Positions 33,878-57,536 of a stretch of 64,000 nt of DNA are shown piece by piece (position 1 is the first letter of the stretch; every line of letters begins with the position of its first letter). Source of the DNA: an uncultured Bacteroidota bacterium (GTDB lineage Bacteria; Bacteroidota; Ignavibacteria; UBA10030; UBA8401); assembly GCA_963717445.1 (NCBI GenBank), contig OY970334.1:3987704-4051703 (forward strand), read 5' to 3'. The notes below the pieces were generated by a model. It saw nothing but the letters and a program-made list of their open reading frames with translations, was not told the origin of the DNA and did not search any database. A program made the translations under genes and the position numbers.

Positions 33878-34649
33878 TATCCTGATTCTGAAAGGCCCGG
33901 GATATAAAGAAGGATTCATGATGTAAAATCTATTGGACGTGATGAAACAAATGTGGCTTGACCATTCATGGTCAGGCTACGAGAGTCGAAATCAAATGTA
34001 ATGATGCCCTTTAGGGCATTAAAAAGGGGGGAATATGTCTCAAACGTATTACAAGCTTTGGATCCATCTTATTTGGAGCACAAAGGATCGTCAGCCTATC
34101 ATGCAAAAAGAATTCAGGTGGAAGATTTTCAACCATATTAACCAAAAAGCGAAAGAGGAAGGTTATCATCTTGATGCAATTAATGGCGCTGCTGACCACG
34201 TTCATTGTTTGATGTCAATCCGGCCCAAATATTCGATTAGCGAGATTGTTAACAAACTCAAAGGTGAATCGTCTCATTGGATCAACCATGAAGGAATCAT
34301 ACCGACGCGGTTTGTATGGCAGGGAGGGTTTGCGGCCTTTTCGGTAAGTGAATCTCAGCTTGGCAAAGTTCGAGCATATATCCATAATCAGGAAAGGCAT
34401 CATCAAAGAATGCCTTTCGAAGTTGAGGTGAAGAAATTCTTGAAACTATATCATGCAATATCGGAAAGGGCATGAATGCCCTTTCTATCTTGACTGCATC
34501 ACCGTATCCCGACCCTGAAGGGCCCGGATACGAATTAGAATTGCCGGTGTAAAATTTGTCGAAGGAGATAAAACAAATATTGCCTGACCATTCATGGCCA
34601 GGCTACGAGAGTCGAAATCAAATGTAATGATGCCCTTCAGGGCATTAAA
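33878..34649. repeat. Two ~145-bp direct-repeat blocks of REP-like palindromes flanking tnpA
   Basis: 33956-34023 matches 34582-34649 at 65/68 nt; looser similarity extends to 33878 / 34505. Perfect hairpin GAAAGGGCAT-GA-ATGCCCTTTC at 34464-34485. Confidence 0.8.
34035..34475 (+). CDS. tnpA: IS200/IS605-family Y1 (HuH) transposase
   Basis: HLIWSTKDR, DHVH (HuH), KGESS, WQGGFAAFSVS, YIHNQERHH. Confidence 0.9.
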   Translation: MSQTYYKLWIHLIWSTKDRQPIMQKEFRWKIFNHINQKAKEEGYHLDAINGAADHVHCLMSIRPKYSISEIVNKLKGESSHWINHEGIIPTRFVWQGGFAAFSVSESQLGKVRAYIHNQERHHQRMPFEVEVKKFLKLYHAISERA

Positions 34650-39392: not shown

Positions 39393-39416
39393 CGTCTAAC
39401 TTTTCTTCTAACACTT
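39393..39416 (+). repeat. Candidate integrase arm-type sites, left end
   Basis: CGTCTAACTTTT plus CTTCTAACACTT in tandem; the same 12-mer occurs twice at 57041-57064. Confidence 0.65.
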
Positions 39417-39479: not shown

Positions 39480-40484
39480 ATGGGAAGCCTTATTCGTCAC
39501 AAGTCAGGGGTCTACTACAGTATCACATCCTTAAACGGCAAGAGAGTCTGGCGATCCTTGCGTACAAAAAACCGCATGGAGGCGTACAAGAAATATCTTT
39601 CCGAGATCAAACCTGAAGTCAAGAAACCGAAGTCGCTCTCATTAACCGATGCCCAAGACCAATACTTGGACTATGTGAAAACTAACTTCTCGCCGAAAAC
39701 GGTTAGCATTTATCAAAACGTCTTTAAACTCTTCGATAGCTTTATTGGCGAAATGGATTTGCATGATATATCGACCCGCGATGTAGACATGTACAAGGCC
39801 AGCCGGATAAAAGATGTTTCAGCCAATACAGTCAATCATGACTTGCGAAGCCTGAAAGCATTCTTCAACCGTTTACTTGTTTGGAAGATGATCGAATCAA
39901 ACCCATGTAATGGAATAAAGACGATCAGAGTCGTCGATACGATCAGGCCATATCTTTCCAAAGAGGATCTCACAAAATTGCTCGCGTACACCAAGGGGAC
40001 TCAATTGCATGACATTATTTTGTTGGCTGCAATGACGGGTTTGAGGAGGGGAGAACTGCTTGGTCTGGCATGGGAGGATGTGGATTTGAAGCAAGGGACG
40101 CTTTTAGTCCATAGCACAATCGGCCACACAACGAAAGGGGGAAAGATCAGGCTCATTCCGATGAATTCAGCAGTCAGGGAGTTATTTGAGAGATTGCCGA
40201 AAAACGAGGGACCGATTTTTATAGGGGAGCGGGGAGGATGGAAGAAGGGAGATTTTGTTGGCAGGAGTTTCAAGAAGGCCATACGGGGTTGTGGATTGGA
40301 TCCGAAGCTTCATTTTCACTCACTCCGGCACACCTTTGCAAGCTTGCTTGTAAAAGAGGGAGTATCGCTTTATCATGTGCAGAGGCTCTTAGGGCATTCA
40401 TCCTCACGTGTCACGGAAATCTATGCACATCTGGGGACGACTGAGTTAAGCGGCTCGGTAGAAAAATTGGCAATGGCAGGCTAA
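39480..40484 (+). CDS. Tyrosine recombinase / integrase 1
   Basis: GLRRGE, TKGGK, HSLRH, LGH, EIY catalytic set intact; short N-terminal arm-binding-like region; GGAGG RBS. Confidence 0.93.
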   Translation: MGSLIRHKSGVYYSITSLNGKRVWRSLRTKNRMEAYKKYLSEIKPEVKKPKSLSLTDAQDQYLDYVKTNFSPKTVSIYQNVFKLFDSFIGEMDLHDISTRDVDMYKASRIKDVSANTVNHDLRSLKAFFNRLLVWKMIESNPCNGIKTIRVVDTIRPYLSKEDLTKLLAYTKGTQLHDIILLAAMTGLRRGELLGLAWEDVDLKQGTLLVHSTIGHTTKGGKIRLIPMNSAVRELFERLPKNEGPIFIGERGGWKKGDFVGRSFKKAIRGCGLDPKLHFHSLRHTFASLLVKEGVSLYHVQRLLGHSSSRVTEIYAHLGTTELSGSVEKLAMAG

Positions 40485-40613: not shown

Positions 40614-41690
40614 ATGAAATTCAATTCTGATCAACCGTTTGAATTACCCCTTCTTCCACCGGCCTTAAACTTCAAGCATGAGGAATTTTTTGATATTCTA
40701 ATGAAGACGAGAACCGAGTTAGGCGAGTTAAACGGATATTCGTACACGCTTCCCAATCCAATATTGCTGCTTTCTCCCGCCGTACTCAAGGAGTCTGTTG
40801 CAAGTTCGAATATCGAAAATATCAACACAACGATGGAGGAGGCTTTACAAGCTCAACTCTTTCCAGATGCAGAACAGAAAAAGCCCGATAAAGAAGTGCT
40901 CCGGTACAGAGACGCCATCCAGTGGGGGTTTGAAAACCTCAAGAAAATCCCGATCTCGACTCGGTTGATTCTTGGGATTGAAAAAAAACTGATGCCGGAT
41001 AGAATAGAAGGATACAGGAGGACTCAGAATAAAATTACAAACGTCACGACAGGGAAAGCTCTCTATACTCCACCGACCGCTAACGAACTTCCCAGGCTGT
41101 TAGGCAACTGGGAGAATTTTGTCAATGCTGAAGACGATAACATCGACCCGCTTGTTAAATGTGCAATCGCTCACTACCAATTTGAAGCAATCCACCCATT
41201 TAGCGATGGCAATGGTCGAACGGGGAGAATCCTAATAGTATTGTTTCTAATTCAGCGGAAGCTTCTCTCATTGCCGATTCTCTATGTCAGCGGATACATC
41301 AACAAAAACCGAAACGAGTACTATCGGCTTTTGCGCGAAGTAAGCACAGAAGGAAAATGGCATGAGTGGATTCTCTTTATGCTAAAAGGCTACCACCTGC
41401 AAGCAAAAGGGACAAAGGAAGTCATTCTCCGGATTACAGAAATGCTTGAAGAAATGAAGGTGCTTCTCCGGACAAAGCACAGAAAAATCTATTCATCGGA
41501 CTTAGCAGAAGCGTTGTTTGCATATCCGATTGTTACGCCAATTAACCTTGGCAAAAGGTTAGACGTGAACTACCGAACGGCAAGCCGTTACCTTGTGGAA
41601 CTTGAGAAGGGGAAGGTTCTTAGTGAAAGTTACATTGGGAAGTATCATCTCTATTCAAACAAGCGATTGTTGAAAATGCTCAGATCGTAA
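40614..41690 (+). CDS. Fic-domain protein with inhibitory motif and C-terminal HTH
   Basis: HPFSDGNGRTGR; N-terminal SSNIEN matches (S/T)xxxE(G/N); VNYRTASRYLVEL helix-turn-helix. Confidence 0.92.
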   Translation: MKFNSDQPFELPLLPPALNFKHEEFFDILMKTRTELGELNGYSYTLPNPILLLSPAVLKESVASSNIENINTTMEEALQAQLFPDAEQKKPDKEVLRYRDAIQWGFENLKKIPISTRLILGIEKKLMPDRIEGYRRTQNKITNVTTGKALYTPPTANELPRLLGNWENFVNAEDDNIDPLVKCAIAHYQFEAIHPFSDGNGRTGRILIVLFLIQRKLLSLPILYVSGYINKNRNEYYRLLREVSTEGKWHEWILFMLKGYHLQAKGTKEVILRITEMLEEMKVLLRTKHRKIYSSDLAEALFAYPIVTPINLGKRLDVNYRTASRYLVELEKGKVLSESYIGKYHLYSNKRLLKMLRS

Positions 41691-41793: not shown

Positions 41794-41880
41794 TCTTCTT
41801 CACGGGTAACGGAAATCTATGCTCATCTTGGAACTACGGAATTGAGCGGTTCGGTAGAAAAATTGGCGATGGCAGGATGA
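41794..41880 (+). pseudogene. Second, synonymously recoded copy of the last 28 codons of integrase 1
   Basis: Encodes SSSRVTEIYAHLGTTELSGSVEKLAMAG*, identical to 40398-40484 in protein, with 15 nt differences. Confidence 0.9.
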
Positions 41881-41910: not shown

Positions 41911-42123
41911 ATGAATATCAGGATTAGGATCGAGAAACTTGAATTGCCCAGGCGAAAATTGCGAGAGGAAGAAGCACGGCTGGAAGAAGAAGCAAGAAAA
42001 GCAGGATTTAGTCTCGATGAATATAAAGAAATCAAAAAACAAATTGCCGCATTGTCCCCTGAGGAGCTAATAGAACTGGCGGGGATGACACTCACGAAAG
42101 AACTTGAATCCGAGAACGAGTGA
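41911..42123 (+). CDS. Small hypothetical coiled-coil protein
   Basis: GAGG RBS; N-terminus MNIRIRIEKLE resembles the ORFs at 55124 and 55462. Confidence 0.6.
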   Translation: MNIRIRIEKLELPRRKLREEEARLEEEARKAGFSLDEYKEIKKQIAALSPEELIELAGMTLTKELESENE

Positions 42124-42226: not shown

Positions 42227-42431
42227 AGAAAGCCTTACCTTGAGTGATATTTAAGCCGTCCCGGTAGATCATCGGAATTTTATAGCTAATGCCGAATTCC
42301 TCAAGAAAGCCTATGTCCACAAGGAGTCTAATCTTGGTTCGTAACTCCTCGTCTTGGGATTGACCTGCCCCCCAAAAACCGATCCACTCTGAAGTTAGAA
42401 AATTTTATATTGTGGATCAACGGAGGCAGCA

Positions 42432-42710
42432 ATGAGCAGAAAAAAGCATACAGCGGAGGAGATCATCAACAAACTGCGAGAAGCAGAGGTCTTGCAGGCT
42501 AAGGGGATGTCGATCGAGGAAGTGATGCGACAGCTTGGAATAAGCGATGCAACGTATTACAAGTGGCGGAGGGAGTATGGAGGCCTACGGGTTGATCAGG
42601 CAAAGCGATTGAAGGAGCTAGAACAGGAGAACAGCCGATTGCGGAGGGTCGTGGCGGATCTGACGATTGATAACTCGATCTTGAAGGAAGCCTCACGGGG
42701 AAACTTTTAA
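42432..42710 (+). CDS. IS3 transposase OrfA
   Basis: HTH region (ISDATYYKWRREYGG) and leucine zipper LKELEQENSRLRRVVADL. Confidence 0.93.
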   Translation: MSRKKHTAEEIINKLREAEVLQAKGMSIEEVMRQLGISDATYYKWRREYGGLRVDQAKRLKELEQENSRLRRVVADLTIDNSILKEASRGNF

Positions 42711-42754
42711 GCCCGGTCAAACGGCGCCGGGCAGCGGAAGAGATCCAGGAAGAA

Positions 42755-43552
42755 ATGATCGTATCAGAGCGACGAGTATGCCGTGTATTGGGACAAGCAC
42801 GATCAACGCAGCGACAAGAGCACAGAGCCAGCGAAGAAGAAGAACGCCTTACACAGCGCATCACAGAGCTGGCATGTCAATATGGGCGTTATGGCTATCG
42901 TCGGGTAACCTTGTTACTGAGGACTGAAGGATGGCGTGTGAACCACAAGCGAGTCGAACGGATATGGCGTCAGGAAGGCCTGAAAGTGCCCAAAAGGCAG
43001 CGCAAGCGACGACGTCTATGGCTCAATGATGGATCCTATATCCGACTGAGACCAGAACACAAGGATCACGTCTGGAGTTATGATTTTGTTGCAGACAGAA
43101 CGAGTAATGGAAAACCGTTAAGGATGCTCAACGTGATCGACGAGTACACCAGAGAATGCCTGGCGATCAGGATTGACCGGAAGCTTACCTCGAACGATGT
43201 TGTGGAGGCTTTAGCAGAATTATTTGTGACGAGGGGAACCCCGGCACATATCCGCTCGGACAATGGACCGGAGTTTATTGCAGAGGCAGTACGAACATGG
43301 CTTCAACGGCTCGGTGTGGATCCACTCTTTATCGAACCGGGAAGTCCTTGGGAGAACGGATACATCGAATCATTCAACGGAAAGTTAAGAGACGAGTTGC
43401 TTAATGGAGAGATCTTTGATACAATTACGGAGGCAAAGGTTGTGACGGAACGATGGAGGAACTACTACAACAAAATCAGACCACACAGTTCGTTAGGCTA
43501 CAAACCACCGGCACCGGAAACATTTTATTCACTTCAGGTTGCCAATGCCTGA
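42755..43552 (+). CDS. IS3 transposase OrfB (DDE)
   Basis: WSYDF, RSDNGPEF, PWENGYIESFNGKLRDE, RPHSSLGY. Confidence 0.95.
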   Translation: MIVSERRVCRVLGQARSTQRQEHRASEEEERLTQRITELACQYGRYGYRRVTLLLRTEGWRVNHKRVERIWRQEGLKVPKRQRKRRRLWLNDGSYIRLRPEHKDHVWSYDFVADRTSNGKPLRMLNVIDEYTRECLAIRIDRKLTSNDVVEALAELFVTRGTPAHIRSDNGPEFIAEAVRTWLQRLGVDPLFIEPGSPWENGYIESFNGKLRDELLNGEIFDTITEAKVVTERWRNYYNKIRPHSSLGYKPPAPETFYSLQVANA

Positions 43553-44969
43553 AAAAATTAACTAACTTAACATTGGCACATAAACTGGGGGCAGGTCACG
43601 ATAGAGTAGCGGAATCATATTCAGATTTTTTGTCGCGGAAGGCTTGAATGAGATATGCGCTCTCGCCTGCTTCCGCAAGAAGAGTGTCTTCGACACGTTC
43701 TTGGCTTAGCGAGGTTAGTCCTCTCTTAATCGAGTCAGCCTGAAAGATTGACTCACCCACTTTCAGGGCGCGTGGATCGCGTTCTTCTTTGCGAATTTGA
43801 ATGTCTCGAGCTTTCTTAAGTAGATCGATTAAATTGCGAGGGGGCTTGACACCGTTACCATCACGAATTCGGGATAAGATCCAGGTCCACGTCAAAGGTT
43901 TTTTTTCTCCAACGTCGATTTGTTCAGGGAAGAAAAATGCGAAGATTTCTTTCTTAGTTCTTCCGCCAAGGTTTGCCTCATTGATGACTTTCGAGTTATT
44001 CATTATTCGACGCATCAAAAGGTCGAAGAGGTCCTCGTCGTTCCAAGTCACGGCTATTCTTCGGGCATTTACGTGGGTGAGGTTTACGAAGCCGCCTTCT
44101 ATTATTTTTCTAAACAAATCGTTCCTCACAAACAGCTTAAGGCGGATGTTCTCGAATTCGAGCAAATCGAGGTATGTTCTGAATAACGCACGAAGAGCTG
44201 GTTTTTCAGTATTTGGGAATCCTTGGAATGCTTCATCAAGTCTATCAATTACGACCCATGCTTTTAGTTCAATCTGAGCAAGAACTTGATTGAGAAGGAG
44301 AAATGCTTCATAATGGTCAACGACAGGATGCGGTGAGTCACGGGGAGGAGCCTCTTCTCCAAACTCTACTTTTGGTACCAGGATAGGCATTCCTTGTGGA
44401 CTAATCGTCATTTTTAATTCGACGGACTTTGGAGTGATTAATCTCTGAACAACATTAACCAATTTGGAGAAAACGGTGTTGGGTGTATCATCAACTGTGC
44501 GTAAATCAATTTTCTTGAGAAGATCGTCCAACTCGATCATTTCGTCAGAGTAAGATCCTTCATAAACCTGTAGAATCCAATTGCCAACAAGTGAGATGAT
44601 GTAAGCTTTCCAGATTGTCAAGTATTGCCCTTCATCAAGAACTTTCGTTTGTGCAAGGCGTTGGAAAACTGGATTGCCCGAAGGATTGAATCCGGTGATT
44701 ATCTCGGTGTCTTCAAGAGAGGCGATTGATCTGTATGTGCTTTGGAGGATTTTATAGAGTGACGTTTTACCGGTTCCTTTGTCGCCGGCTATAATGTCGC
44801 CTTTGTCTCCAATTAAAGAGCGAAAGGTATCGGTTTCCACGAAGTACTCTTGGAGGCCAGTGTCAAATTCAGCGACTGAACTTCCGAGGTTCAGGTCCTT
44901 CAGTATTTCTAATGGTGTCATTTTGATCTCCTCGTTCTAATGCATTATGTGTTGTGACGAAACGTGGCG

Positions 44970-47024: not shown

Positions 47025-50000
47025 GTGAAAAATAAGAGTGCGATGAAACAGGTTGTCATCGAAAACCCGATTCTAAATTCCCCATTCAAGGAGCCGGCCC
47101 GCCATTTCCGATTCTCGGACGAAGGTATCACTAACGAGATTGTTGAAGGTCGCAGGATTAGTTCCTACTTCATCCCGATAGCCAAACCCCGAAAAAAAGG
47201 CGGGAATCAACTTACCTTCGATACTGAATGGACTGAAGATCGCATTGAAGAGAACAAGTTCATCAATCAAGTGCGAGAGCGGGTTGCACAATGGAGAAAT
47301 CAAGGGTATCCGTCTTCGAGCATTACCAAGACCACAAAGCAATTGCTTGAATATTGGCAACACGAGGATCGTACTCGGAAACTCTTCTTCTGTCAAATTG
47401 AAGCTGTAGAGACTGCCATCTATCTAACCGAGGTAGCCAAAAAATACGGTGATACCTGGATCGACAATAAGATTCATGCCGCCAATCTCGAAGCGAATCC
47501 GTTGCTCTACAGGGTCGCCTTTAAGATGGCTACCGGTTCCGGCAAAACTGTTGTCATGGCCATGATCATTGCATGGCAAGCGCTCAACAAGATTGCGAAC
47601 TCTCAGGACTCGCTTTTTTCCGATTCGTTCTTGATTGTCACACCGGGCATTACAATTCGTGATCGACTGCGCGTGCTGCTACCGAACGATCCGCAAAATT
47701 ACTACAAAGCGATGGACATAGTTCCGCCGGATTTGCTTGAGGAACTTGGTAAAGCTAAAATCATCATTACAAACTTTCATGCGTTTGGGCGGCGAGAAAA
47801 AGTTGCTGCTGGCAAACTTACAAAGAGCATTCTGAGTAAAGGTGACACATCCGTTTTTACTGAGACGCCCGACCAAATGGTCCGACGTGTCTGTCGAGAG
47901 CTTGGCAGCAAAAAAAACATCGTTGTAATCAACGATGAAGCACATCACTGCTACAGACGAAAAGCAGACGGTGAGGAAGAAATGCTTAAAGGTGATGAAC
48001 GCAAGGAAGCCGAGAAGCGTGAAGAGGAAGCGAGGATTTGGATTTCAGGACTTGAGGCTGTCAAAGCGAAACTTGGCCTCAAGGTTGTCTACGATCTTTC
48101 GGCTACTCCGTTCTTTTTGCGTGGATCAGGTTACCCAGAAGGGACGTTGTTCCCCTGGGTGGTATCAGATTTCTCGTTGATCGATGCAATAGAGTGCGGT
48201 ATCGTCAAGGTTCCTCGTGTCCCGGTTTCTGATGATTCGATGGTGGGGGATCAACCAACGTACCGCGATCTTTGGCTTCGCATCCGAGAACATTTGCCCA
48301 AAAAGGGACGTAAAACTCAGGCGCTTGAGGGAGAGCCCAATCTCCCAGTGGAACTCGAAGGTGCACTCCAGAGCCTATATCTCAACTACGAGAAGTACTA
48401 CAGAAAGTGGGAGCAAAACACTGAGGCTCGTTCACGTGGCCTTACCCCTCCGGTCTTCATCGTAGTCTGCAACAACACCAACGTTTCAAAGATGGTGTAC
48501 GACTATATTGCCGGATGGGAAAAAGAACTCCAAGACGAAGAAAGGATTGTAGTTCCTGGTAAACTCTCCCTCTTCAATAACGAAGAAAATGGAAAATGGA
48601 GTGCAAGACCGAACACGATCCTTGTGGACAGCCAGCAATTGGAATCGGGGGAAGCGATGAGTGATGATTTCAAGAAAATTGCTGCTGCCGAGATAGAAGA
48701 GTTCAAAGCAGAGTATCGCCTTCGTTTTCCAGGCCGGGACGTTGACATCCTAACGGACGAAGATCTACTTCGTGAGGTCATGAACACGGTGGGCAAACTT
48801 GGTAAACTTGGTGAGCAGATCAAATGCGTGGTAAGCGTGTCGATGCTAACCGAAGGGTGGGATGCAAATACTGTCACCCACATCCTTGGTGTGCGTGCCT
48901 TCGGTACACAACTGTTATGTGAACAGGTTGTCGGGAGAGGACTGCGCCGCATGAGCTATGCTGCAAATGAAAAGGGACACTTCATGCCCGAATACGCTGA
49001 GGTATATGGCGTACCGTTCTCCTTCATTCCCTCGGCAGGATCGGCTGTCGATCCAAGGCCCGGCCCAATGCCAACAAGAGTTCGTGCGCTTGAAGACCGA
49101 GTGGCCTGCGAGATTACGTTCCCTCGTCTTACTGGTTACCGATATGAACTGCCCGCTGAAAAACTTACGGCAAAGTTTACAGATGCTTCTCGAATGGCAT
49201 TATCAACTGCTGACATCCCAACCAAGACGGAGAATGCACCAATCGTTGGAGAAACGAGTATTCACACTCTCGACAAACTGAAACTGCGACGTGAGCAGGA
49301 AGTGATATTCCTGCTTTCTAAGTTTGTCTTAGAACGCTACTTGCGGGATGCTGATGACAATACAAAGCCGTGGCTATTCCCCCAACTGCTCCGCATCGCG
49401 AGAGATTGGCGCAACCAATGTGTTACGCTAAAAGACAACACCTTTGTTCAGCTGCTATTGCTCATCGAGTTCGCTAACCAAGCTGCTCAAAAAATCTATC
49501 ATGCAATTGTCAACGCAGATGAAGGCGGGAAGCGACTGATGCCGATTCTGCGACCATTCGATACTATCGGTTCCACTCGTTATGTTGACTTCGATACAAC
49601 TCGTTCCACGTATCGAACTCGTGAGGACCGGTGCCATGTGAACGATGTTGTTCTGCACAGTGGGTGGGAGGGGAAGATGGCGCAGACGCTTGAGGACATG
49701 GAAGATGTTTTCTGCTACGTTAAGAACCAGAATCTCGGGTTCACGATTCCATACACATTGGATTCCGAGGAGCACAACTACGTCCCCGACTTCATCGTGA
49801 AAGTAAATGATGGTCATGGGAAAGAAGACCTATTGAACCTTGTTATTGAGGTAACCGGTGAGAAGAAGAAGGACAAACAGGTGAAGGTATCAACTGCAAA
49901 GACACTTTGGATTCCTGCAGTGAATAATCACAGCGGTTTTGGACGATGGGACTTCTTGGAGATTGAAGATCCCTGGGATGCAGCTCATTCAATCATTGAC

Positions 50001-50258
50001 TTCCTGAGACAGAGAGGTGATTCACAAGCTATCATACAGAAAACCTCCGATGTATCGGGGGGTGAGGCATGTATCCGTAATACAAGGATTGCTGTATGGA
50101 CGATCATCAGCCTAATTAAGCTCGGATCTTCAGACGCTGACATAATCAAAGCATATCCTTCCCTGGATATGGTTGATCTTCAATCTGCTCGGTTTTACTT
50201 TGACCGGCACACTGATGAAATTGAGCAATCAATCAAGCAGCACGAGGAGGCAGATTAG
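47025..50258 (+). CDS. res: Type III restriction endonuclease Res (BPTD_3080-like) with C-terminal DUF433 fusion
   Basis: MATGSGKT, NDEAHH, SATP, MLTEGWD, QVVGRGLRR, PDF...IEVTG; then in frame SGGEACIRNTRIAVWTII...IIKAYPSL (DUF433-like). Confidence 0.88.
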   Translation: MKNKSAMKQVVIENPILNSPFKEPARHFRFSDEGITNEIVEGRRISSYFIPIAKPRKKGGNQLTFDTEWTEDRIEENKFINQVRERVAQWRNQGYPSSSITKTTKQLLEYWQHEDRTRKLFFCQIEAVETAIYLTEVAKKYGDTWIDNKIHAANLEANPLLYRVAFKMATGSGKTVVMAMIIAWQALNKIANSQDSLFSDSFLIVTPGITIRDRLRVLLPNDPQNYYKAMDIVPPDLLEELGKAKIIITNFHAFGRREKVAAGKLTKSILSKGDTSVFTETPDQMVRRVCRELGSKKNIVVINDEAHHCYRRKADGEEEMLKGDERKEAEKREEEARIWISGLEAVKAKLGLKVVYDLSATPFFLRGSGYPEGTLFPWVVSDFSLIDAIECGIVKVPRVPVSDDSMVGDQPTYRDLWLRIREHLPKKGRKTQALEGEPNLPVELEGALQSLYLNYEKYYRKWEQNTEARSRGLTPPVFIVVCNNTNVSKMVYDYIAGWEKELQDEERIVVPGKLSLFNNEENGKWSARPNTILVDSQQLESGEAMSDDFKKIAAAEIEEFKAEYRLRFPGRDVDILTDEDLLREVMNTVGKLGKLGEQIKCVVSVSMLTEGWDANTVTHILGVRAFGTQLLCEQVVGRGLRRMSYAANEKGHFMPEYAEVYGVPFSFIPSAGSAVDPRPGPMPTRVRALEDRVACEITFPRLTGYRYELPAEKLTAKFTDASRMALSTADIPTKTENAPIVGETSIHTLDKLKLRREQEVIFLLSKFVLERYLRDADDNTKPWLFPQLLRIARDWRNQCVTLKDNTFVQLLLLIEFANQAAQKIYHAIVNADEGGKRLMPILRPFDTIGSTRYVDFDTTRSTYRTREDRCHVNDVVLHSGWEGKMAQTLEDMEDVFCYVKNQNLGFTIPYTLDSEEHNYVPDFIVKVNDGHGKEDLLNLVIEVTGEKKKDKQVKVSTAKTLWIPAVNNHSGFGRWDFLEIEDPWDAAHSIIDFLRQRGDSQAIIQKTSDVSGGEACIRNTRIAVWTIISLIKLGSSDADIIKAYPSLDMVDLQSARFYFDRHTDEIEQSIKQHEEAD

Positions 50259-50594
50259 TTGGCCAAACTATACACCAATGAGAATTTCCCTCAGCCTTCA
50301 GTTGATGAACTTCGCAGATTAGGATATGACGTACTCACTTCGCATGAGGCTGGAAACTCAAATCAGCGAATCCCGGACCCCGATGTTCTTAATTATGCAA
50401 CTGAAAAAGAAAGAGTACTAATTACCTTCAACCGGAAACACTTCATAGCTTTGCACAAATCAAATGGTGTGCACTCCGGTATCGTAGTATGCACCGTGGA
50501 CAACGATTTCGTGGCGTTGGCGCAAAGGATAGACGTGGAACTTAAACAGAACGGTAACCCTGCTGGTATGCTGATCAAAGTCAACAGGCATTGA
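50259..50594 (+). CDS. DUF5615 PIN-like protein (putative toxin)
   Basis: LYTNENFP...LRRLGYDV...DPDVLNYA...RVLITFNRKHF...HSGI; TTG start right after the res stop, GAGGAGG RBS. Confidence 0.85.
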   Translation: MAKLYTNENFPQPSVDELRRLGYDVLTSHEAGNSNQRIPDPDVLNYATEKERVLITFNRKHFIALHKSNGVHSGIVVCTVDNDFVALAQRIDVELKQNGNPAGMLIKVNRH

Positions 50595-50618
50595 AGGTCT
50601 CGTCAATAGGACAAACCG

Positions 50619-53420
50619 ATGGCAAAACAAAAAAAGAAAAAAAGGGATGCGAAGATCGTCTACTCAACCCCCGTAGAGCACATGAAGCATCGTGACAAAA
50701 GGGTGAACATTCCCACAGAAGAGTTGCGGGACTTCGTAGCTGAAGATGAGAAGGCGCCCCAAAAGATGTTGTACCCCCGTGATCCGTCGCTCGACCCACA
50801 GCTGGTGTGGAAGGGAAAAGACGAGCAGGACTCAAAGCCTTTAGAAGTTCCCATTGTGCCTATCTACATTCAGGAGAAAATTCACCCTCAGGCGATTGTT
50901 GAGGATTTAAGGGCTCAAGCTCGAAAGGAAAAACCAGAAGATCAGGTTGGTTTATTTGATGACTTCAACGGCATTAACTTCGAGGAAATGATCGATTTCT
51001 ACCAACACGAGCAAAATTGGACAAATCGTGCGATTCTCGGTGACTCACTACTTGTTATGACCTCTCTCTCCGAAAAGGAAGGGCTGAAAGGAAAAGTACA
51101 GAGCATTTACTTTGATCCACCGTACGGTATTAAGTTTGGTTCCAACTGGCAGGTGTCCACCAGGCGGAAAGATGTAAAGGACGGTAAAGTGGAGGACACA
51201 ACGCGGCAACCAGAACAAATCAAAGCATTTCGTGACACATGGGAGAACCACATACACTCTTACCTTGCGTATCTTCGGGATAGACTCGTCGTCTGTCGAG
51301 ATTTGTTGACGGAAAGCGGAAGCCTCTTCGTTCAGATCGGAGAGGAAAACGTGCATCTTGTCAGATCAGTTCTTGACGAAGTGTTTGGGGCCGAGAATTT
51401 CTGCAGTCAAATTGCTTTTAGAACTGCAACAAGCCAGCCAACCACTTTGATTTCATGTGTCTACGATTTTGTTCTTTGGTATGGCAAAGTCAAAAGAGAT
51501 GTAAAATACCGCACGCTAAATCGAGAACGCGAGTACTTTGAGAAAATATCGACCTTTGGCTGGATTGAATTGCAGAACGGACAAGAAAGAACTCTCTCTG
51601 CCAAAGAAAAGAGAGGCGAAATCGCATTACCAGAAGGGGGCAAGCTTTTTAAGGACGCAGATATTACACTCGTGCGTAAACCCGACAAACCATACCAACA
51701 TCCGAGATTCAAAGGGAAGGAATTTCCGCTTTCACTTCAGCTTCGATATGTAGATGGCATTGAGAGGCTTGTTGCAGACGATAGAGTCGTTGTTGTAAAT
51801 GATCGCCTTTGCGGAAAACGATATGAGAGTGACATCCCTTACGTGAAGTATAATTCTGTTTGGGACGATACTATGCAAGGGACTTTCGAGCTGACAAAAG
51901 ACCCAAAAAAATATGTAGTGCAAACAGCACCGAAGGTGATACAGCGTTGTCTTCTTATGACCACTGAACCCGGGGACCTTGTGCTTGATCCGACCTGCGG
52001 TAGTGGCACAACCGCATTTGTCGCCGAACAATGGGGACGGCGGTGGATTACCATTGATACGTCGCGGGTAGCTCTCGCGCTGGCTCGCACGCGTCTCATG
52101 GGAGCGAAATTCCCTTATTACCTTCTCTCAGACTCAGCGGATGGAGCCCAAAAAGAGGCAGAAATTACGGGTAAAATCCCCTCAAGCATAGTTCCAAAAA
52201 GAGAAAATGACATCAAAAAAGGGTTCGTGTATCGACGAATCCCTCACATCTCGCTCAAGTCTATTACAAACGACAGACAGATCGACGCTATTTATGCGAA
52301 GCGACAAGGGAATCTTGACGCAATTCGTGCCGAGTTAAACACGTCTCTCAAGCAGTCATGGGAGGACTGGCAAGTACCAGGAGAAGCAGACCAAACATGG
52401 CCACACAAGACTAAGCAATTCCACGCAGAGTGGTGGAAGCTGTACCGTGAACGGCGGAAAGAGATTGATGACCTTATAGCACGTCATTCTGATACCGAGT
52501 TGCTGTACGATCAGCCGTACGAGGACAATAAGCGCATTAGGGTGACCGGTCCGTTTACTGTCGAATCACTTTCCCCTCACCGGGTACTCTCAACCGCAGA
52601 CGATGATCGCGATGGAAAATTCTCTGAACAAGAAGCAATGCAGCAACAAGACTTCGTCTCGATGATCCTTGATAATCTCCGGAAAGCGGGTGTTCAGAAT
52701 ACAGTAAGAAAAGAGCGACTCAAATTTGATCGACTCGATTCGTTTGCGGGGGTCTGGCTCCATGGTTCGGGTGAGTATTCGGAGAATGGCAAGAGGAAGC
52801 GAGTAGTCATATCTATCGGTCCTGAACATGGAACGGTCGGACCACAACTCATCAAAGAAGCAGCTAAGGAGGCGGTATTGGGGGTTGGTTTTGACTTGCT
52901 CATTGTCTGTGGCTTTGCCTTCGATCCCCACGTTTCCGAAGAGGCGAAACGGTACGGCAAGCTCACTGTCCTCATCGCCCGAATGAATCCCGACCTTGCA
53001 ATGGGTGATGAACTGCTCAAGAAGACTGGAGCAGGCAACCTCTTCATGGTGTTCGGTGAGCCGGACATGGAAGTGAAAAAGCAAAAGGATGGTAAGATCA
53101 TCGTCACTATCAAAGGTCTTGATGTCTACGATCCAACCACAGGTCAGATCCGCTCAAGTACTACAGACGACATTGCATGCTGGTTCATCGATACGAACTA
53201 CAACGGCGAGAGCTTCTTCGTGCGTCATGCTTACTTCACTGGTGCGGATGAGCCATACGAAAAACTCAAGCGAGCCCTCCGAGCCGAGATCGACGAGGCC
53301 GCATGGTCTGCCCTCTACTCCACCAAGAGCCGTCCCTTTGATACACCGATCACAGGAAAGATTGCCGTGAAGGTAATAAATCACTTCGGTGATGAGGTGT
53401 TGAAGGTCTATGATTTGTAA
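50619..53420 (+). CDS. mod: Type III DNA methyltransferase Mod (beta-class motif order)
   Basis: YFDPPY (motif IV), a variable central region, then VLDPTCGSGTT (motif I). Confidence 0.9.
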   Translation: MAKQKKKKRDAKIVYSTPVEHMKHRDKRVNIPTEELRDFVAEDEKAPQKMLYPRDPSLDPQLVWKGKDEQDSKPLEVPIVPIYIQEKIHPQAIVEDLRAQARKEKPEDQVGLFDDFNGINFEEMIDFYQHEQNWTNRAILGDSLLVMTSLSEKEGLKGKVQSIYFDPPYGIKFGSNWQVSTRRKDVKDGKVEDTTRQPEQIKAFRDTWENHIHSYLAYLRDRLVVCRDLLTESGSLFVQIGEENVHLVRSVLDEVFGAENFCSQIAFRTATSQPTTLISCVYDFVLWYGKVKRDVKYRTLNREREYFEKISTFGWIELQNGQERTLSAKEKRGEIALPEGGKLFKDADITLVRKPDKPYQHPRFKGKEFPLSLQLRYVDGIERLVADDRVVVVNDRLCGKRYESDIPYVKYNSVWDDTMQGTFELTKDPKKYVVQTAPKVIQRCLLMTTEPGDLVLDPTCGSGTTAFVAEQWGRRWITIDTSRVALALARTRLMGAKFPYYLLSDSADGAQKEAEITGKIPSSIVPKRENDIKKGFVYRRIPHISLKSITNDRQIDAIYAKRQGNLDAIRAELNTSLKQSWEDWQVPGEADQTWPHKTKQFHAEWWKLYRERRKEIDDLIARHSDTELLYDQPYEDNKRIRVTGPFTVESLSPHRVLSTADDDRDGKFSEQEAMQQQDFVSMILDNLRKAGVQNTVRKERLKFDRLDSFAGVWLHGSGEYSENGKRKRVVISIGPEHGTVGPQLIKEAAKEAVLGVGFDLLIVCGFAFDPHVSEEAKRYGKLTVLIARMNPDLAMGDELLKKTGAGNLFMVFGEPDMEVKKQKDGKIIVTIKGLDVYDPTTGQIRSSTTDDIACWFIDTNYNGESFFVRHAYFTGADEPYEKLKRALRAEIDEAAWSALYSTKSRPFDTPITGKIAVKVINHFGDEVLKVYDL

Positions 53421-54694: not shown

Positions 54695-54765
54695 AGAGGT
54701 CAGCCTTCGGTATATCCGGACTTTCGCTCTAACAAAACCGTGTTGACGCTCGAAGGCTGACATCT
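54695..54765. repeat. 15-bp inverted repeat upstream of the small-gene operon
   Basis: AGAGGTCAGCCTTCG (54695-54709) / CGAAGGCTGACATCT (54751-54765), 14/15 match. Confidence 0.7.
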
Positions 54766-54860: not shown

Positions 54861-55115
54861 ATGGAAGAACCCCTTAGCAAGAACGCAAATAAAGATGGTC
54901 AAGAGAGCAAAAATCTGCGACCGATTAGGATCCGGTCCGTTAAAGATGCTCGTCGGCTGCTGGCAAGAATCCTAAGGCAATTACAATTGGGTGAAATTTC
55001 GGAGTCGAAAGCAAAGACAATCTCTTATGTTGCAAATAGCTATGCGAAGTTGTTTGAGGTCTCTGAACTGGAAGAACGGGTCGCAGAACTCGAAAAGAGA
55101 ACGACGGCAAAATAG
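54861..55115 (+). CDS. Small helical protein resembling the C-terminal region of DUF5681-type terminase-small-subunit-like proteins
   Basis: IRSVKDARRLLARILRQLQLGEISESKAKTISYVANSYAKLFEVSELEERVAELE pattern, recognised by eye. Confidence 0.55.
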   Translation: MEEPLSKNANKDGQESKNLRPIRIRSVKDARRLLARILRQLQLGEISESKAKTISYVANSYAKLFEVSELEERVAELEKRTTAK

Positions 55116-55123
55116 ATCGATAA

Positions 55124-55465
55124 ATGGTTATGAGGATTGAAGAAAGAATTCGGAGGTTAGAACAAAAGCTTGGATTAGACAAAAGCATCGAGACAGACGT
55201 GGTAACTCTCTTATATGGGTGTGATGAATCACATGGACCTCAATTGGAAGCTGAAGGATGCGTAAGGGAGGGGGATTCGTGGGTGCGGTACGTAGAACCA
55301 AGTGAGAAATGGGCGAAAAGGCAAGAAGCGAAGGGACGTCGCATAAGGACCAGAATTATGTATCGAATTAATACTCCGAGCACCGAAACAGAGGACATCG
55401 TCGAAAAGGCCCAAACCAAGAAATTAAGTTCCTTAGTTAAAAATCGTTCAGCGGTTGCAGGATGA
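55124..55465 (+). CDS. Small hypothetical protein
   Basis: Operonic; N-terminal RIEERIRRLE; ATGA overlap with the next gene. Confidence 0.65.
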   Translation: MVMRIEERIRRLEQKLGLDKSIETDVVTLLYGCDESHGPQLEAEGCVREGDSWVRYVEPSEKWAKRQEAKGRRIRTRIMYRINTPSTETEDIVEKAQTKKLSSLVKNRSAVAG

Positions 55466-55722
55466 GTCTCAAGATACGAATCAAAGATTTGGAAAAAAAG
55501 AAGAACCCAACGGATCAAGGCCCAAAAAGTCACGTCATCATCTTCACTCCAGGTGTTGATAACGTTGATGCGCTGGTTGCCGAATATCGAAAAAAAGATA
55601 GCGAAAGCTTCCTCTTTGTCATCCCGCGATTCATGCGAAGGACAGAATTATCCGATATGAGTGCTCAAAGCGGAAATAATAACGATTCGAAACAGAATGG
55701 ATCCCAGTTAGGACGACCGTGA
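55462..55722 (+). CDS. Small hypothetical protein
   Basis: N-terminal MSLKIRIKDLE; GTGA overlap with integrase 2. Confidence 0.65.
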   Translation: MSLKIRIKDLEKKKNPTDQGPKSHVIIFTPGVDNVDALVAEYRKKDSESFLFVIPRFMRRTELSDMSAQSGNNNDSKQNGSQLGRP

Positions 55723-56975
55723 ATCCGAGTTTTTTGATACCGGAAGACATATTGTTGGAACCTCGGCTCCTCCAAGTGTACTGTTACTTGTTGAGGATGG
55801 TTTGTAATGAGCCGACGAAAATTCGTAAAGACGGGGTTATGGTGGAATTGAGGAGGCTGGAAGTAGCAATTTTAGGAAGAGACATCTCCCACGATCTTGC
55901 TTTACCGATGAGTGACATCGAACCGCTTTTGAACAAATTGGTCGAGGTAGAGCGAATCATAGTTGACAGAAAGGACGACCTTATGAAAATACGATTCATG
56001 AAATTGCTCTTCCCGCGGTCGAGTGATAGTTCAAACGATGAAAGCCTCCGGGGGGATGTCAGCGACTATTGGCTCGACGATTTCAAAACCGACTACCAGG
56101 AATATGTACAGACGAACCTTTCCCAAAAGTCACTTGATAATGCAAAAAGAGTGATGAAATTATTCTGCAATTTCGTTGGGAAAAAGAAGTTGGGCTACAT
56201 CAGGTCATCAGATGCGGAGGACTTCAAACAAATGCGCAAGAATCAAAAATCTCGCGTTTCAGATGCTACTATCAACATGGATATTAGAACCCTTAAGGCC
56301 GCATTCCAATTCGCAGTGGATGTAGGGAAACTTCATGAAAATCCATTCCGAGCTGTAAAGCAAATTCGATGTCCGCGAAAGCAAATGGCAACTTTCAGTC
56401 ATACAGAGTTTAAGCATTTGACTGGTCATATCAAAGAGCCCTGGCTGCTGGACATAGTCAGATTTGACGTGAATACTGGACTCCGACGAGGAGAAATTGT
56501 AAACCTACGTTGGAAGGATGTTGATCTGGCGAACAAACGCATGTTGATTCAATCATCAGCAGAGTACCAAGTGAAGCATGGAAAGTTTCGCCAAGTCCCT
56601 CTCAATAAGGCAGCATTGGGAATAGTCAAAAGACAAAGTAAGGAAACTGAGTGGGTGTTCTCTGACAGCAATGGGTATAAGTTTGTCGATGAATTTGTTT
56701 CGAAGAAATTCAAAGGGTATGTGAGGCTCTGCAAGCTTTCGGAGGAATTACATTTTCATTCTCTTCGGGCAACGTTTGCAACTTGGGCAATTGCGGCGGG
56801 AATGTCGATCTATGCTGTGAAGGCGATCTTGGGCCATGCGTCAGTGAAGACATCGGAAACCTATGCTTCATACGAAATGGACGCACTTCAGAAGGAAGTC
56901 GAAAAGATTGTTTTGGTCGAAGAAGCAGAGGAATTCAAAGCACCGCTGAAGCTTGTAGGCAAAAAACGATCTTAG
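55719..56975 (+). CDS. Tyrosine recombinase 2 with ~110-aa N-terminal winged-helix-like extension
   Basis: GLRRGE, VKHGK, HSLRA, LGH, ETY intact; core region resembles integrase 1. Confidence 0.9.
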   Translation: MNPSFLIPEDILLEPRLLQVYCYLLRMVCNEPTKIRKDGVMVELRRLEVAILGRDISHDLALPMSDIEPLLNKLVEVERIIVDRKDDLMKIRFMKLLFPRSSDSSNDESLRGDVSDYWLDDFKTDYQEYVQTNLSQKSLDNAKRVMKLFCNFVGKKKLGYIRSSDAEDFKQMRKNQKSRVSDATINMDIRTLKAAFQFAVDVGKLHENPFRAVKQIRCPRKQMATFSHTEFKHLTGHIKEPWLLDIVRFDVNTGLRRGEIVNLRWKDVDLANKRMLIQSSAEYQVKHGKFRQVPLNKAALGIVKRQSKETEWVFSDSNGYKFVDEFVSKKFKGYVRLCKLSEELHFHSLRATFATWAIAAGMSIYAVKAILGHASVKTSETYASYEMDALQKEVEKIVLVEEAEEFKAPLKLVGKKRS

Positions 56976-56991
56976 GAGTACAAAAATGCTA

Positions 56992-57020
56992 TTGCAGAAC
57001 GCAAACAATTTTCTTATATT
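56992..57020 (+). promoter_or_regulatory. Element-encoded putative promoter for tRNA-Asp
   Basis: TTGCAG-N17-TATATT inside the element, about 115 nt upstream of the tRNA. Confidence 0.5.
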
Positions 57021-57040: not shown

Positions 57041-57064
57041 CTTCTAACACTTCTTCTAACACTT
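57041..57064 (+). repeat. Candidate integrase arm-type sites, right end
   Basis: CTTCTAACACTT twice in perfect tandem. Confidence 0.7.
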
Positions 57065-57135: not shown

Positions 57136-57210
57136 GGGGTCGTAGCTCAGTTTGGTTAGAGCGCCTGCCTGTCACGCAGGAAGTCGCGAGTTCGAGTCTC
57201 GTCGGCCCCG
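57136..57210 (+). tRNA. trnD: tRNA-Asp (GTC)
   Basis: Acceptor stem GGGGTCG/CGGCCCC, anticodon stem CCTGC/GCAGG with GTC, T-arm GCGAG-TTCGAGT-CTCGT; CCA not encoded. Confidence 0.97.
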
Positions 57211-57536
57211 CAGAAAATGGAAATACAGTGCGGCTAATGTTGGTCGCCCGCCATCTTTCAGGCGGGTCGGCCCCGCAGAAAATGGAAATACAGTGCGGCT
57301 AATGTTGGTCGCCCGCCATCTTTCAGGCGGGTCGGCCCCGCAGAAAATGGAAATACAGTGCGGCTAATGTTGGTCGCCCGCCATCTTTCAGGCGGGTCGG
57401 CCCCGCACAAAATGGAAATGGAGTGCGGCTATTCTCGCTCGCCCGCCATCTTTCAGGCGGGTCGGCCCCGCACAAAATGGGAATGCCTCGCGGCTATTCT
57501 CGCTTGCCCTCCATCTTTCAAAGGGGTCGGACCCGC
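57201..57536 (+). repeat. 65-bp tandem repeat, five copies plus a partial, each starting with the last 10 nt of tRNA-Asp
   Basis: Units start at 57201, 57266, 57331 (identical), 57396, 57461 (progressively diverged), 57526 (partial). Confidence 0.95.

Follow-up and report, generated by a model that had tools for sequence, protein, structure and literature searches.

A tyrosine recombinase with a predicted initiator-type winged-helix head in a two-recombinase tRNA-Asp island of an uncultured Bacteroidota bacterium

Background

In the lambda model, an arm-binding integrase and its arm repeats explain integration, and excision normally needs Xis. The N-terminal domain largely sets the choice between integration and excision by tyrosine integrases. 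The arm-binding integrases of tRNA-targeted islands and phages (the lambda Int/Xis type) are associated with a tRNA target and its displaced fragment, a crossover in the anticodon loop, arm-type tandem repeats, and core-binding and catalytic domains. Displacement of the 5' fragment of the tRNA is known but rare, being recorded for 159 of the 3919 islands of Islander (PMC4383910).

Two catalytically intact tyrosine recombinases are retained by Tn554 (TnpA, TnpB, TnpC), the SEs (IntA, Tfp, IntB, Srap), the GInts and the RITs. Their recombinases lie in one operon at one end of the element together with accessory genes, and in Tn554 and the SEs both are required (PMC10214605, PMC3414803). Pipolins with IntSXT and IntP2 (10.1101/2024.05.22.595293) are tRNA-inserted defence islands with two integrases; one is thought to be secondary, and the second integrase has its own excisionase. 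Winged helices are tied to excision by tyrosine integrases through the recombination directionality factors (Xis, RdfS; PMC11963761). These factors are small, free, DNA-binding proteins. An N-terminal winged helix-turn-helix (wHTH) with a hairpin insert is also found in the DnaD-like or replisome-organiser initiators of phages (PHROG 2514, 7498 and 186; bearers of Phg_2220_C and DnaB_2).

The locus described here lies in a 64,000-nucleotide stretch (the window; GCA_963717445.1, contig OY970334.1, positions 3,987,704 to 4,051,703) of an uncultured Bacteroidota bacterium. It has the features listed above for the lambda Int/Xis type, with a probable crossover in the anticodon loop, but differs in having a second intact recombinase (int2) at its other end, a winged helix at the N-terminus of that recombinase and no conserved Xis that could be seen. 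Unlike in Tn554, SEs, GInts and RITs, the two recombinase genes are 15 kb apart at opposite ends, share no accessory gene, would flank attP in a circle, include one arm-type N-terminus and target the 5' half of a tRNA. In contrast to pipolins, there is no piPolB, and the second pipolin integrase has no initiator-type head. The int2 wHTH also differs from the directionality factors: it is a member of the initiator family, forms part of a recombinase and carries an acidic recognition helix. Compared with the DnaD-like initiators, int2 keeps the N-terminal domain only, its first strand is shortened, its recognition helix is acidic, a recombinase is fused to it and no exact iteron-like repeats are seen nearby. 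The initiators and int2 have in common a wHTH with the same hairpin insert, and a dimer of the head is predicted through the first helices. As an integrase system with a second enzyme built in, the island recalls Tn554, the SEs and the pipolins, but it is a member of none of them: its recombinase genes do not adjoin each other, accessory genes and piPolB are missing, and the head derives from an initiator.

From sequence and structure models, int2 is very probably a wHTH-headed recombinase and the element a two-recombinase tRNA-targeting island. Both tRNA islands and multi-recombinase elements are known. The initiator-type head on a recombinase and the pairing of recombinases at opposite ends are apparently new, and the family of two-integrase islands in uncultured Bacteroidota is apparently undescribed. 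No description of a fusion between a wHTH initiator and a recombinase was found in the literature searched, which covered few subscription papers. The available sections of Smyshlyaev et al. (PMC8138268) describe no subgroup like int2.

Results and discussion

The island and its ends

The first 41 nt of tRNA-Asp recur at attL (Table 1) and nowhere else in the genome. This delimits a defence island of 17.9 kb, which takes the place of the 5' half of the tRNA gene and has integrase 1 at attL and int2 at attR. The tRNA gene and its displaced end fragment are in the correct order by the Islander definition, with an integrase inside. The CTAAC-N7-CTAAC tandem occurs once at each island end and once more in the 4.2-Mb genome, before tRNA-Lys. 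Rfam matched the tRNA alone. Inverted core repeats around the anticodon loop were sought by eye, and the right half of attP is too degenerate for assignment to either recombinase. The contigs searched, which come from one study, hold no attP or attB joint; contigs drop rare forms, so this has no bearing on excision. A tandem of two single-integrase islands in the window was rejected, as there is no internal att copy.

Table 1. Features of the island in window coordinates, with the basis of each assignment.
Feature	Position	Strand	Basis
attL core, 5' 41 nt of tRNA-Asp, ending just past the anticodon loop	39290..39330	+	sequence
attL arm-type tandem direct repeat, CTAAC-N7-CTAAC	39393..39416	+	sequence
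Integrase 1, 334 aa, short arm-binding-type N-terminus	39480..40484	+	N-terminus read from sequence; no Pfam arm-domain match
Cargo: SoFic-like Fic protein, present too in the tRNA-Asp elements of G004, G006 and G007	40614..41690	+	
Type III restriction-modification cargo: Res fused to DUF433, DUF5615, Mod	47025..53420	+	Pfam
Three small genes upstream of int2, not shared with the other complete elements	54861..55722	+	
wHTH-headed tyrosine recombinase (int2), 418 aa	55719..56975	+	ORF call, Pfam, catalytic residues
int2 head (aa 1-99): winged helix carrying a beta-hairpin insert, with an acidic recognition helix; homodimer predicted	55719..56015	+	models, profile comparisons
int2 flexible linker, about aa 100-114	56016..56060	+	pLDDT under 50 in model
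int2 core-binding and catalytic domains (R256 K286 H347 R350 H373 Y382)	56073..56918	+	Pfam, alignment
Element-borne promoter-like motif TTGC-N19-TATATT	56992..57020	+	inferred; 16 nt downstream of int2
attR arm-type tandem direct repeat, 2 x 12 bp, CTAAC-N7-CTAAC	57041..57064	+	sequence
Intact tRNA-Asp(GTC), sole one in genome; first 41 nt form the attR core	57136..57211	+	sequence

The motif between int2 and the tRNA is found within 250 nt upstream of 7 of 48 tRNAs, compared with 0.24% of random windows, and it is also present at the host tRNA-Asp sites of relatives. Since the motif is enriched upstream of tRNAs, the island probably supplies the promoter of the restored, single tRNA-Asp. It is also placed so that it could drive int1, across attP in a circle. 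A generic sigma-70 scan did not pick up the attR motif (8 of 12 matches).

The position of int2 16 nt upstream of a motif that probably drives the sole tRNA-Asp would suit a regulator or guard. Such a protein would occupy the att cores or the attR promoter, limit excision or superinfection by related islands, or tune tRNA-Asp transcription, and the remnant and arm left behind at tRNA-Lys in G000 fit this role as well. However, no full-length member, even at an identity of about 25%, has lost any of the six catalytic residues, and this speaks for strand cleavage. A mainly regulatory int2 is considered quite improbable.

Several further repeats occur near tRNA-Asp. The 3' end of the gene begins a set of 65-bp tandem repeats (57201-57525; three near-perfect, two decayed), and relatives have other repeats at this place. 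Upstream of tRNA-Asp, L025 and L037 have degenerate arm-like repeats and the promoter motif without an adjacent recombinase, which may have been left by islands since lost. In L036 and L039, short repeats upstream of tRNA-Asp or attL contain additional 15-nt copies of the 5' end of tRNA-Asp.

The island cargo consists of a SoFic-like protein, an ATPase interrupted by an insertion sequence and type III restriction-modification. After the Fic gene, the final 28 codons of integrase 1 occur once more (41794-41876; 84% nucleotide and 100% amino-acid identity), which resembles a scar of cargo capture at the 3' end of the integrase gene. An IS3-like element with two ORFs (about 42361-43595) seems to truncate the ATPase gene (43596-44921) at its end; it is also present in the G015 island at 76-81% identity. 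The type III Res gene (47025-50594) ends in DUF433 and is followed by a DUF5615 gene, so that a toxin-antitoxin-like pair is fused into the restriction operon. The three small genes upstream of int2 gave no informative Pfam or PHROG match. A perfect 11-bp inverted repeat (54699-54709 and 54751-54761) without an Rfam match precedes their operon. The small ORFs 41911-42123, 55124-55465 and 55462-55722 have a similar opening motif, I-R-I or I-E-E-R-I with L-E a few residues on; neither of the two that were scanned matched a family. At 33892-34649, a 146-aa ORF that looks like a possible IS200-type transposase lies between two 132-nt repeats.

The int2 gene and its translation

The int2 ORF begins with a GTG codon. 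Pfam places SAM-like core-binding domains at residues about 125-217 and Phage_integrase at residues 242-384 (E 2.7e-30), and gives no match for residues 1-114. An earlier sequence-only reading of this DNA had called the gene a tyrosine recombinase with an intact R-K-H-R-H-Y set. All six residues are indeed present, and the same set occurs in every full-length relative; by this set and its core-binding domain, int2 is a member of the tyrosine recombinase superfamily. The same reading took the N-terminal extension to stand in place of the arm-type region of integrase 1, and the two proteins align only from int2 residue 119, with 35% identity there. The three-strand/one-helix arm-binding domain of the IntTn916, CTnDOT, SXT and P2 groups is missing, and the model has a winged helix instead. 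Within a small taxon sample, the int2 core groups with the arm-type integrases of the host (100/99) as opposed to the XerC/D-like and integron-like rows.

The start of int2 overlaps the stop of the upstream gene (GTGA), and AGGA lies 6 nt upstream of the start. Therefore, the translational coupling to the small-gene operon that had been proposed is plausible in this copy, but it is not conserved, since relatives with 80% identity sit about 230 bp behind a different, unrelated gene.

A translation start near residue 110, named beforehand as the finding that would undo the fusion, is rejected. There is no in-frame ATG, GTG or TTG between residues 97 and 144, and the equivalent Met is used as a shared start in 16 relatives. 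The dN/dS of codons 2-100 is about 0.09-0.12 and that of the core is 0.08-0.11 (two unsaturated comparisons), so by codon comparison residues 1-99 are under purifying selection. These three results indicate that the N-terminus is really translated. The single origin on the tree (see below) likewise counts against an extension that is untranslated or a functionless chance fusion. A lineage represented in two samples (L024:178-1470) could be cited for that view, as it has an in-frame TAG in the linker between head and core and may be a natural split or read-through form; the view itself is now largely refuted and has a negligible chance of being correct.

Fold and origin of the head

AlphaFold2 predicts the head as a helix, a beta-hairpin, a strand, a helix-turn-helix and a wing (pLDDT 90), followed by a disordered linker. 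The winged helix proposed for residues 1-110 is thus borne out by structure prediction and Foldseek. The top six matches among viral models (BFVD) are replisome-organiser or DnaD-domain proteins, with E down to 1e-6 and TM of 0.73-0.79. An O protein, that of ECP1, ranks 33rd (E 0.019, TM 0.63). Atlas structure matches over residues 1-99 have TM of 0.81-0.87 and are proteins of 184-295 aa, some of which carry DnaB_2 or Phg_2220_C. PHROG 2514 is matched by 11 of 16 wHTH recombinase members (best E 1.6e-4), and PHROG 678, used as a test for the lambda O type, by one of 16 (E 0.047). The profile of the head family recovers four full initiators in the class and family of the host, and its alignment with the initiator profile is strong (hhalign 98%, E 4e-14).

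Other searches of the head were less specific. Foldseek against the PDB had no match with E under 0.001, the matches from VIA-align were generic wHTH structures with tied scores (Z 7-9), and sequence searches against Pfam and the PDB returned weak generic wHTH matches. By Atlas features, the nearest clusters were unnamed ones (0.93) and an HTH cluster (0.92); this is taken as a lead only. The head profile did not match two lambda-O-like proteins from sister islands significantly, in an alignment of two rows.

From these profile matches, the head is homologous to the N-termini of the phage DnaD-like or replisome-organiser initiators (PHROG 2514), and lambda O is much more distant. The sequence and model comparisons would place the head and lambda O in the same superfamily, with lambda O not the nearest family. 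The sequence-only reading had derived the head from O-type initiators; as far as phage replication initiators in general are concerned this was correct, since the fold, PHROG 2514 and the profile matches all point there, but the donor is of the DnaD-like type. The C-terminal helicase-recruiting domain of those initiators is absent, and residues 119-400 of int2 are recombinase domains.

The recognition helix has a mean net charge of -1.4 in the wHTH recombinases (15 negative and one zero, n=16). In the initiators, of which there are only four, it has a mean charge of +2.5 (+2 to +3) and a basic S-T-x-R motif. Since this basic face is lost from the recognition helix, the head may not bind DNA and a DNA-binding label is doubtful. 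The earlier idea of a different DNA-binding head stands as far as the head is different, but is doubtful as to binding. The hairpin insert of the int2 family is basic (+2 on average), so DNA binding through another surface of the head is possible.

A homodimer of the head is predicted through residues 2-30 and 59-61, with a score of 0.53 compared with 0.00 for the best control; the runs have a contact agreement of at least 93% and a pLDDT of at least 84. Among reference cases, 20 of 30 solved pairs attained the mark for a homodimer, as did one of 23 single chains, and the pass of the head may reflect likeness to solved wHTH dimers. We infer from the models that the head is a dimerisation module more than a sequence reader.

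Distribution and history of the recombinase pair

The islands have a common layout: the tRNA 5' fragment and an arm repeat come first, the arm-type integrase, the cargo and the wHTH recombinase follow, and a second arm repeat and the whole tRNA close the element. The search for the same architecture next to tRNA-Asp in relatives, which had been suggested as a check, was positive. Contiguous brackets of 10 to 80 kb were found at tRNA-Asp (G000, G006, G007), tRNA-Lys (G007) and tRNA-Val (G015), and brackets split over contigs at tRNA-Asp (G004, G041) and tRNA-Lys (G006). Metagenomic relatives likewise end just before tRNA-Asp or, in L021, just before a tRNA-Val piece that is followed by an arm-type integrase. 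The tRNA-Lys copy in G006 is broken by an in-frame stop. Among 400 genomes drawn from the phylum, matches occurred in G032 and in one initiator only, and not in the rest searched. The head profile missed a true member (G015); therefore, the member counts are lower bounds. The family is small and, among the genomes searched, confined to uncultured hosts.

On the core tree, the wHTH recombinases (17) group as a single clade (95/91), and so do the ten partner integrases (96/86). Both clades fall among the arm-type integrases of the host; therefore, a single domain swap is proposed. The int2 type would have arisen once, from an integrase core that lost its arm-binding domain and gained a DnaD-like initiator winged helix. 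Within the host family, a wHTH recombinase is present in the same genome for eight of the ten partner-clade integrases, and the other two are in fragmented assemblies. The identities of int2 and integrase 1 co-vary over seven elements (Spearman 0.61, Mantel p 0.011), a correlation that is confounded by host relatedness; the presumed G041 pair is incongruent. The pairing is not universal, as G032 has a wHTH recombinase but no partner-clade integrase and G088 is rearranged.

In all-against-all BLAST, five complete elements share two genes only, the two recombinases. As nothing else is common to them, no conserved Xis is seen among these elements, although a small fast-evolving Xis could escape BLAST. 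A phage-satellite test found no primase or replicase, packaging or capsid-redirecting genes common to the five.

The shared gene content bears on whether int2 is a Xer-like resolvase that separates dimers of the circle if this replicates after excision, or whether its head links recombination with replication. Homology of the head to replication initiators would fit such a function, and simple recombinases without arm domains are mostly resolvases (PMC8138268). In G088, moreover, the wHTH gene comes directly after a 920-aa protein resembling a primase-helicase by sequence motif; there the two recombinase genes are convergent and the wHTH gene does not adjoin a tRNA. However, no replication gene is common to the five complete elements, the C-terminal domain of the initiators is absent and the DNA-reading helix is changed. 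A search for exact repeats in 53.4-57.1 kb found none that is iteron-like, as no 9-mer occurs in three or more copies. Replication-linked recombination, one of the roles raised in the sequence-only reading, thus gains little support, and the resolvase and replication functions together are judged clearly unlikely.

int2 could instead be a self-sufficient integrase and excisionase that shares attP with integrase 1 and provides a second route or target, with the head reading a separate accessory site. The bracket would then be a chimera of two elements at one tRNA that were afterwards co-inherited. int2 has a lambda-like position pointing at the att site, a complete catalytic set and a faster divergence than integrase 1. 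A solo copy in G032, which has no partner-clade integrase, lies beside a tRNA-Lys piece with its own repeats. Against two independent enzymes, no complete element has a third att copy inside it, the arm repeat is the same at both ends, the two genes have long co-occurred over three tRNA targets, and the recognition helix is acidic. This explanation is considered fairly unlikely.

Proposed role of int2

The favoured reading, with a probability of roughly 0.4, is that int2 is a partner recombinase that acts with integrase 1 at the island att sites and stands in for an excisionase. It is preferred because no conserved Xis is seen, whereas almost all checkable elements have an intact second recombinase at their other end. 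Of the roles raised in the sequence-only reading, excision is thus the likeliest. Against it stand the exceptions to the pairing (G032 and G088) and several broken copies (in G006, L024 and G000). Integrase 1 would bind the arm repeats and integrate the circle with a crossover in the anticodon loop. int2 would act at the same cores, either by itself or together with integrase 1 as a mixed tetramer. Its head would dimerise, bridge attL and attR without arm-site geometry and favour attL x attR synapsis, and int2 would thereby turn the reaction towards excision, for which elements of the lambda type have a separate Xis.

A broader proposal is more tentative and may well be wrong. It holds that these islands are a new element class in which two obligatory recombinases flank attP, an initiator-derived dimerisation head replaces Xis, the arm-binding integrase performs integration, and int2 or a mixed tetramer performs excision. 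If true, tyrosine recombinases would have a means of fixing direction of which the literature searched gives no account. The clade is a natural test of whether a second enzyme, rather than Xis, can set direction, and the test material is defined as two genes and two 200-bp ends. These islands carry defence systems and probably supply the promoter region of an essential single-copy tRNA gene.

Other integrase loci

In G000 (C1 23067-23553), the 115 C-terminal residues of a wHTH recombinase of the tRNA-Lys type remain before tRNA-Lys along with the arm repeat, and a different single-integrase island comes directly after it. Two sister 7-kb islands in G000 (C1 23554-30819 and 512526-520178) duplicate a whole tRNA (Lys and Thr, respectively) and have one integrase each. 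They share a 452-aa protein at 91% identity and a free-standing 134-aa protein that appears to resemble the lambda O N-terminus. Another two-integrase arrangement of this host family is seen beside tRNA-Glu in L138, L139 and L140 (G023, G016 and G041), where the pairs consist of convergent arm-type integrases. Two of these pairs adjoin genes that are terminase-small-like and HNH-like by sequence motif.
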